A stretch of 64,000 nt of DNA from the NCBI GenBank assembly GCA_963700145.1, contig OY969474.1, positions 3,712,001-3,776,000 of the forward strand, read 5' to 3'. Below, in pieces: positions 5,751 through 54,314 of the stretch (position 1 is the first letter of the stretch; each line of letters starts with the position of its first letter). The position numbers and the translations under genes are program-made. This DNA is from an uncultured Acidobacteriota bacterium. GTDB taxonomy: Bacteria > Acidobacteriota > Thermoanaerobaculia > Multivoradales > UBA5704. The notes beneath the pieces are model-generated. The model was not told the DNA's origin and did not search any database. It saw only the letters and a program-made list of their open reading frames with translations.

Positions 5751-6956
5751 ATGGAGCTGCCTTCCGCCGGCCCGCCTGGGCCGACGCTGTCATGGCATCT
5801 GGACCCGGGGAATCGCCCCAAGCGGATCCTGGCGCTCGACGGCGGCGGCGTGCGCGGCACCCTGTCTCTCCAGTACCTCGAGCGCATCGAGGGCATCCTG
5901 CGCCAGCGGCTGGGCCGTCCAGGCCTCGTGCTGTCCGATTACTTCGACCTGATCGGCGGCACCTCGACCGGCGCGATCATCGCGGCCGGCCTGGCGTTGG
6001 GCCTCGACGTCGCAAGGCTCAAGAAGGAGTACGACGAGCTGGCGGCCCGCATCTTCAAGAAGCCGTTCTTCCGCCTCGGCGCCATCGTGCCCAAGTTCGG
6101 TCACGAGACCCTCAAGGTGGCCCTGAAGGGGGTATTCGGCGAAGGGACGAAGCTGGGCTCCCCGGACCTCAAGACCGGCCTGATGATCATGACCAAGCGG
6201 ATGGACACCGGGAAGCCGTGGCCGCTCACGAACCACCCGAAGGATCCGTATTTCGCTCCCCAGCTCGGGAAGCGCCGGATCGGCAACGCCAACATGCTCC
6301 TCTGGCAGCTCGTCCGCGCGAGCACCGCGGCGCCGCACTACTTCCGCCCGGAGGACCTCGTCGTCGGCTCCGCCCTCGACCCGGCGAGCGGGCAGCCGAC
6401 CGTCGACCACGGCCAGTTCGTGGACGGCGGCGTCTCGACCGCCAACAACCCGTCCTTGCAGCTCCTGAAAGTCGCTCTTCTCCGAGGCTTCGCCTTCAAC
6501 TGGAGCGCGGGCGAGGACGAGCTGCTGCTCGTCTCCGTCGGCACCGGGCTGCCGCGGCGGGGTCGGGGTCGGGCGCGGGGGTTCGCCGCCACGGCGGGCA
6601 GGTTCGCGTTCTCGTCGCTGCTTTCGCTCATGGCCGACTGCAACGACGAGGTCGAGACGCTGATGCAGTGGCTGTCCGACGGTCCCACGGCGCGACGCAT
6701 CGACGGCCAGATCGGCGACCTCGGGAACGAAGCGCTGGGCGGACGCCGCCTCCTCACCTACAGGCGCTACAACGTCAGGCTCGAGAGCGCCTGGCTGAAG
6801 AGCGAGCTGGGCCTCGACCGCTCCCAGGAGGAGCTGGACCTGCTGTCCCGGATGGACCGCCCGGCCGGGATGTCCGCGCTGGCGGCCATGGGAGCGCAGG
6901 CCGCCGCCCGACAGGTCGAGCCGGGACACTTGCCGTCGGCGTTCGATCCCCGGTAG
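5751..6956 (+). CDS. Patatin-like phospholipase
   Basis: ILALDGGGVRG, GTSTG (catalytic Ser), RASTAAP, FVDGG (catalytic Asp). Confidence 0.93.
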   Translation: MELPSAGPPGPTLSWHLDPGNRPKRILALDGGGVRGTLSLQYLERIEGILRQRLGRPGLVLSDYFDLIGGTSTGAIIAAGLALGLDVARLKKEYDELAARIFKKPFFRLGAIVPKFGHETLKVALKGVFGEGTKLGSPDLKTGLMIMTKRMDTGKPWPLTNHPKDPYFAPQLGKRRIGNANMLLWQLVRASTAAPHYFRPEDLVVGSALDPASGQPTVDHGQFVDGGVSTANNPSLQLLKVALLRGFAFNWSAGEDELLLVSVGTGLPRRGRGRARGFAATAGRFAFSSLLSLMADCNDEVETLMQWLSDGPTARRIDGQIGDLGNEALGGRRLLTYRRYNVRLESAWLKSELGLDRSQEELDLLSRMDRPAGMSALAAMGAQAAARQVEPGHLPSAFDPR

Positions 6957-49097: not shown

Positions 49098-49375
49098 GGG
49101 AACGGGTCTCCGACCGCCGCGGACGCGGGGGCGGCGGGCGTCAGCTCGACCGCGTACTCCTCGACGACGGTGTTGGCGAGGAGCTTCTCGCACATGGCGC
49201 GCAGCAGGCGCTCGGCCTCGGCCGGGTCGTCGGTCGCCAGGCGGATGTCGAAGGACTTGCCGGCGCGCACGTCCTCGACGCCGTCAATCCCAATACGGGA
49301 GAGAGCGCTGCAGATCGCCTTGCCTTGCGGGTCCAGGATCTCGCGGCGCGGGTAGACCGTGACTCGTGCCTTCAA
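49094..49375 (-). CDS. purS: FGAM synthase subunit PurS
   Basis: [19 protein letters not shown]; GGAGGT RBS before TTG. Confidence 0.95.
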
Positions 49376-50156
49376 AGCTCACCTCCATCCAGGGGGTGGG
49401 ACGGGCCTGACAGGTGATCTCCACCCGGGCGCGGGAGCCGGCGCGCGCCAGCGCCTCCGAGACCACCGCCGCCGCCAGCGCCGGCAGGTTGTTGGTGCGC
49501 GACAGGTGGTAGGGCGCGACCCAGCGCAGGCGGTCGCAGAGCAGCTCCGGCAGGCCGTCCGCGGCGTCGCCGTTCGACAGGTGCCCGTGGCGGCCGGCGA
49601 CGCGCTGCTTGAGCGGCCAGGGGTAGGGGCCGTTGCGCAGCATGTCGAGGTCGTGGTTGGTCTCGAGGAGCAGGACGTCGAGGTCGCGCAGCCTCCCCCA
49701 GGCGAGCTGGCTGCGGGTGCCGAGGTCGGCGACCAGGCCGACGCGGCAGCCGTCGCCGTCCTCGACGACGATGCCGATCGGCTCGCGCGCGTCGTGCGGC
49801 ACGGCGAAGGCCTCCAGCCGGAAGCCGGCGGCCTCGCACGGCTCGCCGGAGCGGATGACGACGACCGGCAGCTCCGGGTCGTCGTCGGGGAGCGGGGCGC
49901 CCTGGAGAGTGCCGGCGGTGGCGTAGACCGGCAGGCCGTGGCGCGCCGCGAAGCGCTCGGCGCCGCGGGCGTGATCGACGTGCTCGTGGGTCAAGACCAG
50001 GGCGTGGAGGTCGGAGCCGGCGAGGCCGACCAGCTCGAGCCGCCGCTCCAGCTCGCGGCAGGAGAAGCCGGCGTCGATCAGGATGCGCCGCCCGCCGCTC
50101 CCTTCGACCACCACGGCGTTGCCGCCGCTCCCCGACCCGAGCACCGCTACACGCAT
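49284..50156 (-). CDS. MBL-fold metallo-hydrolase (YycJ/WalJ-like)
   Basis: LGSGSGGN, IDAG, THEHVDH, VPHDA, ETNHD..ML..GPYP, GHLSN, HLSRTNN. Confidence 0.92.
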   Translation of the reverse strand: MRVAVLGSGSGGNAVVVEGSGGRRILIDAGFSCRELERRLELVGLAGSDLHALVLTHEHVDHARGAERFAARHGLPVYATAGTLQGAPLPDDDPELPVVVIRSGEPCEAAGFRLEAFAVPHDAREPIGIVVEDGDGCRVGLVADLGTRSQLAWGRLRDLDVLLLETNHDLDMLRNGPYPWPLKQRVAGRHGHLSNGDAADGLPELLCDRLRWVAPYHLSRTNNLPALAAAVVSEALARAGSRARVEITCQARPTPWMEVSFEGTSHGLPAPRDPGPARQGDLQRSLPYWD

Positions 50157-50262
50157 GGCGGGGACGGCAGGTGCCTGGGACGGTGGCGCGTCATGAGAGG
50201 TGGCGCGGGGGGCCTCGCTTCGGAGACGCCAAGGGTAGCACCGGCGGGGCGGGATGTCACTG

Positions 50263-50309
50263 CACCCCTTGTGGGCGGGGCGGGGCCTGGCCACAAGGGG
50301 TGGTAGACT
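50263..50309 (+). promoter_or_regulatory. 12-bp inverted repeat abutting a -10 element upstream of the HTH gene
   Basis: CACCCCTTGTGG (50263-50274), 16 nt, CCACAAGGGGTG (50291-50302), then TG-G-TAGACT. Confidence 0.65.
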
Positions 50310-50320
50310 TCGGTCCGATC

Positions 50321-50740
50321 ATGAGCGCCAAGGACCTCCAGAACTTCCGCTACCTGCTGGGGCAGATCGTCCGCGCCGAGCGCTGGCCGCGGCGGCAGCT
50401 CGAGCGCCGCCTCGGCCTCGGCCACAAGAACCTCGAGAAGCTCCTCGACGGCACGATGGAGACGCGCCTGCGCCACATCCTGGCGGTCGCCGAGTGGCTC
50501 GGCGTCCGCCCGGGCGAGCTCGTCGACCTCGGCTGCCCCGAGACCGCCGCGGCGGCCCGCCGTTCGGTCGCCGACGTGCTGGCGCCGAGCCGCGAGGCCG
50601 TCGAGGCCGGTGTCGCCAAGAAGGGGGCGGCGGCAGCGGGCGGCGACCTGGAGGCGATGATCGCGAAGATCGTGCGCCAGGTCATCGAGCAGCAGGGCCC
50701 GGGGCGAGGCGAGGAACCCCCGGGCGGCGAGCCCGAGTAA
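50321..50740 (+). CDS. XRE-like helix-turn-helix protein
   Basis: RRQLERRLGLGHKNLEKLLDGTMETRLRHILAVAEWLGVRPGEL. Confidence 0.8.
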   Translation: MSAKDLQNFRYLLGQIVRAERWPRRQLERRLGLGHKNLEKLLDGTMETRLRHILAVAEWLGVRPGELVDLGCPETAAAARRSVADVLAPSREAVEAGVAKKGAAAAGGDLEAMIAKIVRQVIEQQGPGRGEEPPGGEPE

Positions 50741-50762
50741 CCTCCCCGCGTCCGCGGGAGAG

Positions 50763-51325
50763 CGGTCCGGTCCGAAAATACTCTGCCCCGGTCCGAAGGG
50801 AACACACCCCGCAGGCTTCCCCAAGGGGGACGGTCCGAAGTTGTGCCGGGGAAGCGGCCGGGGCGGTGGTTTCGGTCCGAAAATCTTCCGATTTGGTCCG
50901 ATTTTGTGCCGCCCACGGCCCACGGGCGGCTTCTCTCGCGTCCGAAACCCTTGCCCCGGCGCCAAGATCGCTGTCGGCGGTCCTGAGTTGGGACGGCACA
51001 GTCCGATTCCCTGAAGATTCGGTCCGAAGATAGGACATTTTGGTCCAATTCTCTATCGCTTAGGGTACTCGGACTCCCTCGGCTGTCTCGTTTTGGTGCT
51101 TTCTGGTCCGAAGTTGTTCCCAGCGAGGACCAGGGGTGCCTTAGACGCCGCCACGAGCGAGTGGCGTGGTCCGAAAGTGGGCCTACTCTGTCCGAAGACA
51201 GGGCAAAGCGGTCCGAAGATCGGGCAGTCAACCGTCGGGGATCTGAAATTCGGTCCGAAAACTCTCCACCCTACCGCTCGGCGAGCTTCAACCGGTCCTA
51301 AGTGAGTCCTATCCGGTCTCGTGAG
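50763..51325 (+). repeat. Array of (C/T)GGTCCGAA motifs on a 21-bp lattice with non-repeating spacers
   Basis: GTCCGA at 50770, 50791, 50833, 50875, 50896, 51001, 51022, 51106, 51169, 51190, 51211, 51253 (all 50770+21n). In-phase variants at 50980, 51043, 51085, 51295, 51316. Confidence 0.9.
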
Positions 51326-51376
51326 AAACCGCACAGCCGGTCCGTCTATGCTTGAGAAAGACACTAGGGAGACACC

Positions 51377-52867
51377 ATGCCCAATGACGACACCGTGCGG
51401 TTCGCCGGTTTTCCGACGGCCTTCGTACACGAGACACCGAAGGGAAAGAAGATCCAGCAGCTCCTCTGGGGTGACTTCCTCCGGCTCCTGGGCGGCAAGG
51501 AGGGCGAGTGGGTCGAGGTGCGGGCGCGGGGGCAGAATGGCTGGATGCGGGAGGAGGATCTCCAAGAGGAGCGACTCCTCGAAGTGAACTTCGTGGACAT
51601 CGGCCAGGGGGACGGCTGCTTCATTGTCACGCCCGACGATCGTTTCCTGGTGATCGACGCAGGCGAGTCGGACAACATGTACCGGTTCCTCCGCTGGCGG
51701 TTCAACCTGCGCGCCCATCCCGACCAGGAGGTCGCCTGCGACACGGCCATCGTCACCCACCCCGATGCGGACCATTACAAGGGGTTCCAGCAGCTCTTCG
51801 ACTCGCCCCTCCTCCGCTTCGACGCCGTGTACCACAACGGCCTCGTCGAGCGGGTCGGCGACGACGTCCTAGGCGCCAAGAAGAAGGAGGGAAAGCTCTC
51901 ATACATGACGGAGCTGGTACCTGACCAAACTGCCCTCGACGCCATCATCGGCGACCCGGCCCTGGTGGGAAAGAAGCTCTATCCGCGTCTCTTGCGGACG
52001 GCCGCGACGAGCGGGCGGGTCGGACCCATCCGCTCCCTTTCGGTCGGCGACGAGTTTCTGCCGGGTTACGACGGCAGCGACGGAAGTGGACTGTCTTTTC
52101 GCGTTCTCGCTCCTGTCCCGGAAGTCGTGGACGGCAAGCCCGCGCTCCGCTGGTTGGGGGACGTGGGCAAGACGAAGAACGGCCATTCGGTCGTTCTCCT
52201 GCTGCGCTACCGCGACGTGCGGATTCTCCTCGGCGGCGATCTCAATATTCCGGCGGAGAACTACCTGCTGGCGCACTACACGGGACTGGATCCCGAGACA
52301 GACGACCCTGTCGAGCGCGAGGAGCTGGTTGCGAAGGCGCGGGAGGTTTTCGAAGCCGACGTCGCCAAGGCCTGCCACCACGGCAGTGCCGACTTCAACT
52401 CGCTCTACCTACGGGCGGTCAACCCGCTGGCTACTGTGATCTCGAGTGGCGACGGCGAGCCGCACTGCCATCCGCGGCCCGACGCCCTAGGCACTTTCGG
52501 CAAGCACGGCCGGGGCGACCGGCCCCTGATCTTCTCGACGGAGCTGGCACGTTCGAGCAAGGAGACCATCAAGGAACCCAACCGGGTGCGTGCCGAGATT
52601 CGCGCCCTCATGGAGAAGCGGGACCTGGAGGAGGACATCGACAAGCGCGCCGCGCTCCAGGAGAAGATCAACGAGAAGCTCGGCGTCCTCGAGCGCAGCG
52701 TCGCCGTCTACGGCATGATCAACGTGCGCACCGACGGCCGCGAGGTCCTGCTGGCCCAGAGGCTCGAGGAGCCGCGCTCCGGCACCGGTGAACGTTGGGA
52801 CGTACACGCCCTCACGCGCGACCCGCAGACCGGCGAGCTGCGCTATCGCTCCAAGCACGAGGGCTGA
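51377..52867 (+). CDS. ComEC/Rec2-like MBL-fold hydrolase with N-terminal SH3-like domain
   Basis: LLWGD...WVEVRARGQNGWM (SH3-like); FVDIGQGD, IDAG, THPDADH, NGHSVV, LGGD, KACHHGS. Confidence 0.85.
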   Translation: MPNDDTVRFAGFPTAFVHETPKGKKIQQLLWGDFLRLLGGKEGEWVEVRARGQNGWMREEDLQEERLLEVNFVDIGQGDGCFIVTPDDRFLVIDAGESDNMYRFLRWRFNLRAHPDQEVACDTAIVTHPDADHYKGFQQLFDSPLLRFDAVYHNGLVERVGDDVLGAKKKEGKLSYMTELVPDQTALDAIIGDPALVGKKLYPRLLRTAATSGRVGPIRSLSVGDEFLPGYDGSDGSGLSFRVLAPVPEVVDGKPALRWLGDVGKTKNGHSVVLLLRYRDVRILLGGDLNIPAENYLLAHYTGLDPETDDPVEREELVAKAREVFEADVAKACHHGSADFNSLYLRAVNPLATVISSGDGEPHCHPRPDALGTFGKHGRGDRPLIFSTELARSSKETIKEPNRVRAEIRALMEKRDLEEDIDKRAALQEKINEKLGVLERSVAVYGMINVRTDGREVLLAQRLEEPRSGTGERWDVHALTRDPQTGELRYRSKHEG

Positions 52868-52911: not shown

Positions 52912-54181
52912 CAGGCCGCTGAGAAACGGCCTTCAACGGCGGGTGCGAGGCTGACAGCGATCTGGGAGCGGGCGATGTCGCGTGCGCGGGTGGAAGGGGA
53001 GGGCAACAGGCGCCTTGTGGGCGCGTTTGAGCGCCGCTGGTTTTGCTGGGCAGGACCTTTTTGGGCTATGCCGGCACGAGCAGGCGACTTAATCGGAGCA
53101 GGTTGTACGCTGCGGCGGCGAGGCGGGCGGCCAGCTGCGTCCTCGCCACGCCTCGGACCCTGGTCCGGTGCAGCCCTGCGCAGGTCTTGAGCCAGCCGAA
53201 GATCGTCTCGATTCGCCGCCGTACGACCTGACTGATCCGGTAGCCGGGACGGCGCGTTGTTCGCCGGTCGATTGCCGAGCGCCTGCGCCGGTGGGCATTC
53301 TGGGTGACGTGGGGGGTGACGCCGAGCTCTCGGCAGGCAGCCACGAAGCCCTTGGTGTCGTAGCTCTTATCGGCGCCCACCGTCTTGCGCCGCGAGCCTT
53401 CGAGCCGCGCGAGCAGACCCAGAGCTTCGCGACGCTCGGCGAACCCATCGGCCTGGGCCACCACGAAGTCCACCAACAATCCGTTGCGGTTCTCCATCAG
53501 AGCGTGGCCGGAAAACGAGAGCTTCGCCTCGTGCCCATCCCCCTTGCGGGCCAGGCGCGCTTCCGGGTCGGTCGTCGAGGCGTGCGTCTCGTTGCTCCGC
53601 TTCGTCCCCGTGAAATCGCTCCAGCCGTTGGCGTCTCCGCCCGGTGGCCCGTCCTTGGGCCGGAAGCTCTTCATCGACGCCCAGGCCTCGATCAGCGTCC
53701 CATCCACCGAGAAGTGCTCGCTCGACAGCAGCCGCTGCACGCTCGCCTCAGCCACGATCGCCGCCAAAAACCGCTCGGCCACCTCGTGCCGGATCAGCCG
53801 CTCCCGGTTGCGTGAAAACGTGCTCGCGTCAAACGACGGCTCGTCGAGCTCCAGATCCAAAAACCAGCGAAACAGCAGGTTGTACTCGAGCTGCTCGCAA
53901 AACTGCCGGTCGCTCCGCACCGAAAACAGCGCGATCAGCAGCTGCGCCTTGAGCAGCCGCTCCGGCGGCACCGACGGCCGCCCCGTCTCGGCGTACATCA
54001 CCGCAAACACCTCACTCAACTGCCCGAGAGCCCGGTCGGCCAGCCCCTTGATCCGCCGGATCGGATGCGCCGCCGGAATCCGCTCCTCCAACGACCCCAC
54101 CATCAACAACGTCCTCTGCTCGCGCGCTTTCCCTCGCATGGCCTGCAAGGGTAGCGCGAACCGGGGTTTTTCAGCAGCCTG
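52912..54181 (-). mobile_element. IS5-family-like insertion sequence, 1270 bp
   Basis: Terminal IRs CAGGCCGCTGAGAAAC / GTTTTTCAGCAGCCTG, flanked by CTAG at 52908-52911 and 54182-54185. Confidence 0.92.
53066..54139 (-). CDS. DDE transposase (IS5 family)
   Basis: GRPSVPPERLL, YNLLFRWF, FSVDGTLIEAWAS, STTDPEARL, GADKSYD, RRRIETIFGWLK. Confidence 0.95.
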   Translation of the reverse strand: MRGKAREQRTLLMVGSLEERIPAAHPIRRIKGLADRALGQLSEVFAVMYAETGRPSVPPERLLKAQLLIALFSVRSDRQFCEQLEYNLLFRWFLDLELDEPSFDASTFSRNRERLIRHEVAERFLAAIVAEASVQRLLSSEHFSVDGTLIEAWASMKSFRPKDGPPGGDANGWSDFTGTKRSNETHASTTDPEARLARKGDGHEAKLSFSGHALMENRNGLLVDFVVAQADGFAERREALGLLARLEGSRRKTVGADKSYDTKGFVAACRELGVTPHVTQNAHRRRRSAIDRRTTRRPGYRISQVVRRRIETIFGWLKTCAGLHRTRVRGVARTQLAARLAAAAYNLLRLSRLLVPA

Positions 54182-54314
54182 CTAGAGCTCGGTCCGTTTT
54201 CAAGGCTCCCAACTTTGCCCGCAACTTCCGGATAGCTCGCTGAATGGTCGCCACGTAATCTTCCGAGCGTGTGGCGCGCTGGTCAACGGACATGCCGCAC
54301 CCGAGGAGGACCGC

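Follow-up and report, generated by a model that had tools for sequence, protein, structure and literature searches.

A phased array of short motifs, situated at positions 50763 to 51325 on the plus strand of the window (the whole 64-kb stretch of DNA analysed) from an uncultured Acidobacteriota bacterium, looks, together with the gene to which it is linked, like an undescribed kind of chromosomal protein landing strip. Judged from sequence, it is proposed with moderate confidence that the array serves a predicted-dimeric protein of the XRE family as a phased docking platform. The first-pass annotation had offered three readings, a phased protein-binding platform, a mini repeat-spacer RNA and a cluster of GGWCC modification sites. 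The first of these is now favoured, in view of the constrained cores, the non-coding nature of the array and its linkage to a helix-turn-helix (HTH) gene, and the RNA and GGWCC options lost ground. A search of the full-text literature (subscription journals and supplementary files lay outside it) did not reveal an account of phased arrays linked to HTH genes in Acidobacteria or Thermoanaerobaculia, nor, in the same literature, a paper on Xre operator arrays of tandem repeats at two helical turns.

Architecture and evolution of the array

The array comprises 27 slots of 21 bp with the consensus CGGTCCGAA. Exact GTCCGA cores are found at 12 of the lattice positions 50770 + 21n (n = 0, 1, 3, 5, 6, 11, 12, 16, 19, 20, 21 and 23), against 0.009 exact cores expected in 27 slots from the local base composition, and for 11 or more of the 12 further cores to fall in phase with the first the probability is 3e-14. 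Diverged cores on the lattice have one mismatch (GTCCAA at 51043, GTCCTA at 51295), two mismatches (GTCCTG at 50980, GGCCCA at 50917) or three (GTCTCG at both 51085 and 51316). The counts of the first-pass annotation, 12 exact and 5 near-match cores over 27 slots (GGCCCA at 50917 is not one of these five), were reproduced, as were a 13th exact GTCCGA at 50940, 2 nt off the lattice, and three full interrupted palindromes, TTCGGTCCGAA, at 50871, 51018 and 51249. The core CGG-T-CCG is a short palindrome by itself, the palindrome measuring 7 to 11 bp. All 13 exact cores lie on the plus strand and the reverse complement TCGGAC has a single copy in the region (51069); the plus strand of the window holds 23 copies of GTCCGA, of which 13 are located within 50770-51253. 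The GC content of the array is 61 % versus 71.5 % for the genome. Two GC-rich inverted repeats on the plus strand occupy core-less slots, GCCGCCC..GGGCGGC at 50908-50930 and a second one at 51145-51167. The left arm of the first is lost in the sister species G004, which leaves a conserved hairpin unsupported, and at the aligned place of the second G004 has another inverted repeat, as read by eye.

An orthologous array exists in G004, and short contigs of a public soil run, which may be the source sample, match positions 50678-50944, 50991-51183 and 51225-51500 without differences. The array is therefore no assembly artefact, a possibility that had been raised earlier. It is non-coding. Stops are present in all six reading frames (that of the GPK frame near 51012), and the orthologous arrays of the genome under study (G000) and G004 differ by indels of 1, 1 and 25 bp, so that an open frame, as required for a heptad-repeat protein, is not kept between orthologues.

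Alignment of orthologues had been suggested as a check on whether cores persist while spacers turn over, and this is what was found. In G004, 12 of the 13 cores are retained and the spacers have decayed. Columns identical between G000 and G004 amount to 94 of 104 in the cores versus 299 of 485 in the remainder (Fisher p = 2e-9), a contrast that is somewhat inflated because the aligner anchors on the repeated cores; in the right third of the array the corresponding numbers are 24 of 32 and 77 of 178. In a third lineage (run X3), the five listed differences over 50799-50943 are all located in spacers and none in the covered cores. Comparison of these sequences indicates that the cores are under constraint and that the spacers are decaying. 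Tandem Repeats Finder reported no repeat in the array, hence the spacers of this copy are non-repeating. The sister arrays, however, are simple tandem repeats that show a higher order of 105 bp, and their spacers are decayed copies of one 21-mer. The earlier statement that this is not an ordinary tandem repeat has thus to be corrected, since these relatives reveal the present array to be a decayed 21-bp tandem repeat. The array originated as such a repeat, probably organised in 105-bp blocks of three filled and two empty slots, and has since decayed everywhere except in the 8-9-bp core.

The XRE gene and its linkage to arrays

The gene just upstream of the array (positions 50321 to 50740, plus strand) encodes an XRE or Cro/C1-type HTH protein of 139 amino acids, the candidate array binder. 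Its membership of the Cro/C1 HTH proteins follows from a match to Pfam HTH_26 above the cut-off (26.9 bits, cut-off 22) and from its best fold matches in the PDB, which are the XRE proteins HigA, C.AhdI, SinR and 434 repressor, none of them at E <= 0.001. Searches against NCBIfam and PADLOC yielded no match. The HTH is located at approximately residues 24-43, a G-C-P-E..AAA.R motif is conserved and the C-terminal helix is amphipathic; the mean pLDDT of its AF2 model is 73.5. The predicted homodimer scored 0.70, compared to 0.00 for the best control, passing a mark that was attained by 20 out of 30 proteins whose structures were solved as pairs and by 1 out of 23 solved as single chains, although this pass may partly stem from resemblance to solved XRE dimers. 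The dimer runs share at least 52 % of contacts, with a partner pLDDT of at least 64, and the predicted interface (residues 1-9 and 47-84) is symmetric and leaves the HTH free.

The promoter-proximal region of the gene (50304-50319, plus strand) shows a -10-like TAGACT followed by TTCGGTCCGAT (50309), a near copy of the fullest array unit ending 2 nt before the ATG at 50321. TAGACT may be a -10 box and TTCGGTCCGAT an operator. The genome counts 18 copies of TTCGGTCCGA, of which 11 lie outside arrays. A scan of 50000-51600 for promoters and terminators gave zero promoter-like sites and a single terminator-like site, which is situated on the minus strand within the XRE gene. The motif copy between -10 box and ATG, pointed out in the first-pass annotation, is indeed present but it is not conserved, since G004 and contigs of two other soil runs read TTCGG-CCGATC, with a 1-nt deletion. 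A conserved copy would have been an argument for autoregulation.

The module lies at the edge of a variable island. On its conserved flank, divergent from the XRE gene, is a gene for an MBL-fold hydrolase (49287-50156, minus strand; Pfam Lactamase_B_2, 1.9e-20) that is syntenic in G004 with 91-94 % identity. The first gene of the island (51377-52867, plus strand) encodes an SH3-like and MBL-fold protein of 496 amino acids (Pfam Lactamase_B, 1.1e-10) that weakly, below the curated cut-offs, matches the MBL domain of ComEC as well as LmuA, Avs1a and 6A-MBL, proteins associated with defence; it is missing at the corresponding place in G004 and in another species, G002. Within the island an IS5-type DDE transposase is encoded at 53066-54148 on the minus strand (Pfam DUF772, 2.1e-23; DDE_Tnp_1, 1.7e-13). 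Synteny between G000 and G004 ends near 51112 and restarts near 54199, and the gene downstream of the array differs between species.

Arrays were found behind most of the homologues of the XRE gene that were examined. The six closest paralogues in G000 (E <= 1e-11 among 13 tblastn matches) each have an array of 21- or 42-bp period with its own motif, beginning at the stop codon. Within the genus an array is located behind all four further homologues, and in other genera behind 7 of the 10 examined. A profile search, of which the best 30 loci were taken as a family-wide sample, revealed an array-like repeat downstream in 25 (called where the strongest repeat distance was 20, 21 or doubled and at least 0.10 above background). 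The protein family was found in all 92 genomes of the bacterial family, with 1 to 18 profile matches each. In genus g7, a 33 %-identical homologue is followed by 20 consecutive 21-bp slots, every one with a GTCCGA core. Arrays of the GTCCGA type occur behind proteins with GHKNLEK, SHGRMED and GHGNLER helices; judged by these sequences the correspondence of motif to recognition helix is not simple.

Arrays of GGTCCGAA are present in G001, yet an XRE orthologue was not found in this genome, which is 81 % complete and in which the syntenic contig ends early. Clustering of neighbour genes over 38 modules gave only orthologous groups and no conserved partner gene. A metagenome scan with the XRE protein returned one locus, ending inside the gene, and no additional orthologous arrays. 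Scanning the genomes of 185,579 species for three GTCCGAA cores 21 bp apart gave at least 120 stretches in many phyla; among the listed matches 80 were examined, of which 75 were plain 7-bp/21-bp tandem repeats (at least 8 of 14 spacer bases identical) and five had diverged spacers and few cores, and the scan is thus uninformative on the distribution of the phased-array architecture. Gene and array, the latter beginning approximately 25 bp past the stop codon, form one inherited module; as the two are passed on together, their linkage alone is insufficient as proof of binding.

Other arrays in the genome and alternative explanations

The array is not the isolated oddity that it appeared to be from the window. 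A genome-wide scan of G000 gave approximately 95 arrays of 21-bp period, with many unrelated motifs and one common period; at least six of them carry GGTCCGAA. Grouping the arrays by shared 8-mers chained nearly all into one group, and 10-mers gave usable though imperfect families. One orphan array, in the jag-rsmG gap, adjoins parS-like sites and is situated upstream of rsmG-parA-parB. It stays at this position throughout the genus but its motif depends on the species, and in two species this motif equals that behind an XRE-family gene of the same genome. In G000, G004 and G001 it is GGTCCGAA, as in the XRE-linked array, and in G002 it is AGGTCCTGG with a 20-bp period. The latter pattern was matched 24 times, on six contigs of G002, and was absent from the other four genomes of this genus. 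One of these arrays (locus G002:C171) begins at most approximately 220 bp behind a co-oriented XRE-family gene, a call made by profile match and sequence reading, as single-sequence tblastn gave only spurious matches. GGTCCTK at 21-bp spacing was no commoner in the genus than in controls, because this period is wrong for G002.

The platform might be occupied by another binder, such as a nucleoid-associated protein, a recombinase or transposase targeting the arrays, or a partition- or condensin-related factor. Only about 6 of the ~95 arrays of G000 sit behind a gene of this XRE subfamily and the other ~89 are found elsewhere. A low-GC flank (<64 % GC) accompanies 31 % of the arrays versus 9 % of randomly chosen positions (Mann-Whitney p = 4e-11). 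The right edge of the array coincides exactly with the point where synteny to two sister species is lost, and both the array abutting the parS-like sites and the unconserved promoter copy fit a binder of this kind. Such a binder would however leave unexplained that all six paralogues and 25 of the 30 homologues have arrays at their stop codons, each with its own motif, and neighbour clustering did not find a recombinase gene conserved beside the modules. This explanation is considered unlikely.

It was also considered that the array acts as RNA, forming either a 3' tail on the XRE mRNA or part of a transcript running from the XRE gene into the island, in which GGUCCGAA would bind an RNA-binding protein or a small RNA, or set mRNA stability. 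In this module as in the others observed, all cores indeed share the coding strand of the gene upstream, and the stretch from the XRE stop codon to the array has no terminator-like site. In other bacteria, short-motif arrays preceding start codons have been put forward as post-transcriptional sites (PMC4679880). Folding of the RNA of the two strands was, however, no better than that of shuffled sequences (z = -1.18 and -0.71), and Rfam gave no relevant match (the window at gathering thresholds, 50100-51500 at E <= 10). The orphan GGTCCGAA arrays have neighbour genes of either orientation, convergent ones among them. Strict spacing at two turns (20 or 21 bp) characterises double-stranded DNA rather than single-stranded RNA, and the product of the linked gene has a DNA-binding fold. 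The proposed mini repeat-spacer RNA gained no support from the same folding results, nor from the spacers of the sister arrays, which were not acquired. An action as RNA is improbable.

Slightly less credible still is a neutral or selfish minisatellite, in which arrays of 21-bp units spread and expand by slippage and unequal exchange, biased conversion keeps the cores, and XRE genes co-travel on mobile segments. It would agree with the single period of so many unrelated motifs, with the plain tandem repeats of the sister arrays and with the association of arrays with low-GC variable DNA and IS elements. Conversion would, however, homogenise whole units, whereas between orthologues the cores are fixed and the spacers of the same units near-random. 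Moreover, the array position is held across the genus while the motif is replaced. A Y1 (RAYT-type) transposase gene was not found in G000 (PF01797, 0 matches, versus 6 of 14 control genomes positive in the same search).

Finally, a coding heptad-repeat protein (the minus-strand 50350-51231 'SDR' or the plus-strand 'GPK' frame) or a GGWCC modification cluster can practically be dismissed: 21 bp equal seven codons, the minus-strand frame is open over 293 codons and GGTCC lies within the core, but, besides the stops and the two 1-bp indels, sister arrays jump phase by 1, 4 or 5 bp, the minus-strand frame is mostly antisense to the XRE gene in a genome where at 71.5 % GC spurious long frames are common, and conservation reaches past GGWCC into CGAA, other arrays of the module carrying motifs that lack GGWCC.

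Relation to known systems and possible role

The array resembles iterons, of which those of incA of plasmid P1 are used for titration and handcuffing. In Vibrio cholerae, the sites of RctB include the iterons of ori2-inc, 39-mers and a 29-mer (PMC6090056). As in these systems, direct repeats in helical phase, here on a 21-bp lattice within the ~17-22 bp typical of iterons and with 12 exact cores, lie beside the gene of the (candidate) binder. Extra copies beyond the functional site titrate the protein in iteron systems, and a promoter copy allows autoregulation. The present neighbour is however a Cro/C1-type HTH protein and not Rep, RctB or another initiator, the arrays are chromosomal, at many loci and with up to 20-34 slots, and the promoter copy is unconserved. 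A replicon iteron array was rejected as no initiator gene (Rep, RepA, pi or RctB type) adjoins, the neighbours being the HTH_26 and MBL-fold genes and the IS5 transposase.

Tandem-repeat plasmid centromeres are known from ParR-parC (R1; pSK41 with 20-bp repeats), TubR-tubC, the omega heptads and StbA-stbS (R388). Their motif is system-specific and spaced by one or two helical turns, and a small dimer encoded adjacently coats it cooperatively. The array shares with them the short motif at fixed helical spacing, private to each system; the HTH protein encoded alongside is a predicted dimer (0.70 versus 0.00) and a putative binder. In contrast, the module has no gene for an NTPase of the ParM, ParA or TubZ type, its genes number 1 to 18 per chromosome in all genomes of one family, and its spacers are free to vary. 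The lack of such a partner motor in the module, and of any conserved one across the 38 modules, led to rejection of a plasmid-type centromere.

REP/BIME and REPIN-RAYT elements likewise form families within one genome, with numerous extragenic arrays whose short units have palindromic cores. Here the palindrome is only 7-11 bp, the repeats are direct and the period of 20-21 bp is strict; in the absence of hairpin-forming palindromic units of 20-40 bp and of a RAYT gene these elements were rejected. A CRISPR array was rejected as well: the 8-bp core and 13-bp spacers contrast with repeats of at least ~23 bp and spacers of ~26-72 bp, the sister-array spacers derive from a common 21-mer, and no cas gene is among the neighbours examined. 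Type III toxin-antitoxin (ToxI-type) repeats, near-identical RNA units placed immediately before an endoribonuclease toxin gene, were likewise rejected: here the units vary beyond the core, the gene that follows is species-variable and no structured RNA was found. The 8-bp repeats of Streptomyces TraB-clt were considered as well; no FtsK-like gene lies near the array. TAACTGA heptamer repeats are reportedly short and without long variable spacers. They are described as intergenic direct repeats of Beggiatoaceae, Cyanobacteria and Bacteroidetes, mostly just 5' of start codons, with a proposed translational role (PMC4679880). Like the present motif they occur in many intergenic regions, but here 8-bp cores alternate with 13 variable bases on a two-turn lattice.

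The best explanation would be that the array, non-coding and in helical phase, offers a row of docking sites to a protein that binds DNA sequence-specifically, most likely the dimeric XRE protein. That this protein binds the array we infer from the evidence above, and the purposes suggested for the binding are likewise inferences. Since 21 bp make two turns of B-DNA, bound proteins would be aligned on one face of the helix; they may then touch one another and coat approximately 0.5 kb as a nucleoprotein filament. The half-sites of a classical XRE dimer are about one turn apart, for which an 11-bp palindrome is short, a point against this reading. As at least five orphan arrays elsewhere in the genome are filled with the same core, one of them beside parS-like sites, a single protein may serve the whole set. 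Next to parS and where variable islands of low GC have their edges, the arrays may act as a boundary, a roadblock or a silencer; alternatively, they may be a titration store buffering the free regulator. Occupied repressor rows on synthetic lacO and tetO arrays are a barrier to machines moving along DNA, which is a functional analogy for the boundary or roadblock idea; those arrays are, however, man-made and the roadblock role is here putative.

More broadly, it can be speculated, as a distinctly unlikely possibility, that paralogous HTH proteins, each with arrays of 20- or 21-bp period and a private motif, constitute a chromosome-wide system in this bacterial family. In each motif family, one master array linked to the gene of its binder and several orphans at the borders of acquired islands and next to the chromosomal parS sites would, when coated, act as programmable boundaries or roadblocks to ParB sliding, loop extrusion, read-through transcription or silencing, with protein and motif turning over together. 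If true, this would be a bacterial counterpart of insulators. If XRE proteins coat the arrays, they would represent a natural, modular route to long protein filaments at chosen places on the chromosome, built from a small regulator gene and the private row of sites that travels along with it. The many naturally diverged, orthogonal pairs of protein and motif would be useful for studying how specificity and target change together. Through their places next to parS and along variable-island borders, the arrays may then provide a handle on chromosome organisation in this scarcely studied soil lineage.

The phased array of the window

The first-pass annotation had proposed a 21-bp-phased array of GTCCGA cores at window 50763-51325 (+), and counting confirmed it. 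On the plus strand, 13 copies of GTCCGA lie within window 50770-51253, compared to 10 in the other 63 kb of the window. Twelve of these fall on positions 50770+21n of a lattice of 27 slots, the one at 50940 deviates from this lattice by 2 nt, and degenerate cores occupy five more slots (GTCCTG, GTCCAA, GTCCTA and twice GTCTCG). Local base composition predicts 0.009 exact cores in 27 slots, and the chance probability of the shared core phase is ~3e-14. Occupied units share the consensus CGGTCCGAA with an A/T-rich patch after it, and the full palindrome TTCGGTCCGAA occurs in three copies. Tandem Repeats Finder detected no repeat in the array, and its GC content is 61 % compared to 71.5 % for the whole genome (G000).

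The array is non-coding and is not an assembly artefact. No open reading frame runs through it, stops being present in all six frames. In the sister species G004 the left flank of the orthologous locus is 94 % identical over 3 kb, and the array can be aligned over its whole length with indels of 1, 1 and 25 bp. With these indels no reading frame can be conserved, and this applies also to the minus-strand frame of 293 codons which had been put forward as an alternative. The presence of an orthologous array in G004 also speaks against an artefact, as do contigs of a public soil run, possibly the source sample, which cover three pieces of the array with zero differences.

It had further been asked whether spacers turn over while cores persist, and the alignment with G004 bears this out. 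At the aligned columns 12 of 13 cores are GTCCGA, and identity between both species is 94/104 in core columns compared to 299/485 in all other array columns (Fisher p = 2e-9), a contrast somewhat inflated because the aligner anchors on the repeated cores. For the right third of the array these values are 24/32 and 77/178. The number of bases between cores is kept as well. A third lineage, represented in public soil run X3, shows five listed differences over 50799-50943, every one in spacers. These comparisons show that the core is constrained and the spacers are not.

A family of arrays with a common period

Scanning the genome and its relatives for similar arrays, as had been suggested, revealed a large family. 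A two-core pattern gave 38 matches in G000 and a control pattern none. These matches form six main arrays of 7-19 cores (among which one at 5398631-5399282), each mostly on its own 21-bp lattice, with phase shifts of 1, 4 or 5 bp within some of them. Three are simple tandem repeats whose 105-bp higher-order unit consists of three units with and two units without the core. Occupied slots of the window array are grouped roughly every five slots, and it appears to be an older, decayed copy of the same 105-bp design. Among 61 related genomes, counting G000, the two-core pattern occurs in nine, and all nine belong to the same family (8/36 same-family genomes compared to 0/24 in other families of the order).

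A whole-genome autocorrelation scan of G000 at 21 bp yielded 89 strongly periodic regions outside the window (examples are L009:6151-6261 and L014:6051-6231 in extracted loci). Unit motifs vary widely among them (e.g. GGAAGCTTCC, GATAC..GTATC, AGAT..ATCTC, TTCCG..CGGAA and CGGGAAAGCTTTCCCG), and short palindromes are present in most. The window array is too decayed for the autocorrelation filter; with six arrays added by hand, the total amounts to ~95. Nearly all are intergenic, as judged with a crude gene finder, and 31 % have flanks below 64 % GC compared to 9 % of random places. The 21-bp period is a genome-wide constant in G000, and the motif is array-specific.

A second type of module was also observed (in L009, with gene A at 6290-6661 and the array at 6151-6261), in which a small pterin-4a-carbinolamine-dehydratase-like gene (PF01329, 1.7e-16) is followed by a 21-bp array and then, with its ATG 1-83 bp past the array, by the gene for a helical protein of 123-141 aa that matches no known family. 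It occurs at 10 loci in G000 (L009 and nine further). Each of the 10 paralogues of the helical protein has an array with its own motif, and 5 of the 10 have a distant XRE-like gene at 0.1-4 kb. When arrays were clustered by 10-mers, six of the eight largest motif families held exactly one module of this type.

The XRE-family gene as candidate binder

The gene upstream of the array, at window 50321-50740 (+), encodes a 139-aa Cro/C1-type HTH protein with an HTH_26 match above cut-off. A tblastn search with this protein gave 13 matches in G000, and the six closest (the gene itself and five paralogues) each have an array with a 21- or 42-bp period, starting from the stop codon and with its own motif. 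Arrays also lie behind 7 of 10 homologues examined in other genera and behind 4 of 4 further homologues in the same genus. A single-sequence query detected this protein family in 7 genomes, one of them G000, out of 301 sampled across the class; 5 of the other 6 are in the same bacterial family. A profile of 15 members matched 92 of 92 genomes of that bacterial family with 1-18 matches each. At 25 of the 30 best profile loci, the 340 nt past the stop codon repeat most strongly at a distance of 20, 21 or double of these, with a signal that exceeds the median over every distance tried by 0.10 or more; four loci showed no repeat signal there. Since no more than two genes can end at any of the ~95 arrays, and genome size implies ~4,500-5,000 genes, the baseline for such linkage does not exceed a few per cent. 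A homologue of 33 % identity in genus g7 is followed by 20 consecutive 21-bp slots, all with GTCCGA, and at its ortholog in a second species the cores are kept and the spacers differ. Clustering of neighbour genes revealed no other conserved gene beside the modules. Two loci of G000 (L046 and L048, on contig C1 near 33 kb and 1.365 Mb) are near-identical in their order of tRNA, XRE paralogue, 42-bp-period array and Ku gene, with the array unit CGGTCCTC....TACGCRRTT.

Putative binding of the array by the XRE protein is the best-supported mechanism. Linkage alone could result from co-inheritance; arrays unlinked to the gene are more telling. A GGTCCGAA array lies between jag (R3H) and rsmG-parA-parB (L011:6020-6335), directly behind a site at about L011:5990-6010 which we take to be parS-like from the parS consensus. 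GGTCCGAA is present in this gap in G000, G004 and a further genome of the genus, G001. The same gap holds parS-like sites and a AGGTCCTGG array of 20-bp period, forward then inverted, in G002, and a short run of 21-bp units with GTGTATT in G003 (both by eye). The position is kept in the genus, and the motif differs. In G002, AGGTCCTGG arrays gave 24 matches spread over six contigs; the other four genomes of the genus gave no match. One of these G002 arrays has an XRE-family gene within ~220 bp upstream, on the same strand. In two species the array at the fixed place thus carries the motif of an array behind an XRE-family gene in that genome, as a trans-acting, paralogue-specific binder would predict.

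G004 has GGTCCGAA arrays and an ortholog of our gene (at least 86 % identity). The positional ortholog in G002 is 53 % identical instead; it has GHGNL where our helix reads GHKNL and is followed by a GTCC..TTACGCC array, and G002 gave no match to the pattern GTCCGAA-N14-GTCCGAA. Neither an ortholog nor this pattern was found in G003. G001, 81 % complete and with a syntenic contig that ends early, has GGTCCGAA arrays and no detected ortholog. Three GGTCCGAA arrays (L012:5655-6020 and matching places in L010 and L013) are situated just past the 3' ends of genes for paralogous toxins of SymE type (PF08845, 4.2e-12), one of which appears frameshifted by eye; a flank of ~150 bp common to the three suggests duplication of the SymE and array segment.

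Array period is associated with protein clade, as read from the recognition helix: GHGR or SHGR occurs with 20 bp (L053, L054, L056, L065-L067, L071 and L076), and GHGN, GHGS and GHKN mostly with 21 bp (comparison set L049-L064; exceptions L073 and L078). This association may be mere common descent. In an AF2 model of the XRE protein (mean pLDDT 73.5) the N-terminal helical domain is confident, and residues 73-101 form a long helix. Among solved structures, those closest to the model are HigA antitoxins, the controller protein C.AhdI, SinR and the 434 repressor, none of which reaches E <= 0.001. Homodimer prediction scored 0.70 (best control 0.00), a mark that 20 of 30 proteins solved as pairs attained, compared to 1 of 23 solved as single chains. 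Runs agreed in at least 52 % of contacts, with a partner pLDDT of at least 64, and the predicted interface (residues 1-9 and 47-84) leaves the HTH free. As many XRE dimers have been solved, this result may partly reflect likeness to those structures.

Several observations weaken the case for XRE binding. The first-pass annotation had noted a motif copy between the -10 box and the ATG of the HTH gene. This promoter copy, TTCGGTCCGAT, is present and statistically unexpected in G000, where TTCGGTCCGA occurs 11 times outside arrays in 5.46 Mb, but G004 and contigs from two other soil runs read TTCGG-CCGATC at this site, which makes autoregulation through it doubtful. For a classical XRE dimer a palindrome of 11 bp is short, and recognition helix sequences show no simple mapping to array motifs. 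Furthermore, most of the ~95 arrays of G000 are not next to genes of this XRE subfamily.

Genomic setting and possible roles

Synteny between G000 and G004 extends as far as window ~51112 and is restored at ~54199. The intervening 3.1 kb of G000 contain an SH3/MBL-fold gene, showing weak likeness to defence-associated MBL proteins, and an IS5-type transposase. In the same place G004 carries 13.9 kb of other genes, including a UvrA-like open frame of 1424 aa (by eye), and G002 yet other genes, including one for a 1111-aa protein. With synteny breaking at the array and different genes in each species, the array marks a fixed border, with a variable island at its right edge.

Iteron titration arrays and plasmid centromeres are the closest known systems. 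The module was searched for the initiator gene that defines the former and the motor gene that defines the latter, and neither was found. Full-text searches of the open literature gave no account of an HTH-linked phased array module. The array is real, constrained, non-coding and helically phased, and is part of a conserved module with an XRE-family HTH gene. It may serve as a boundary, a roadblock, a silencer or a titration store.
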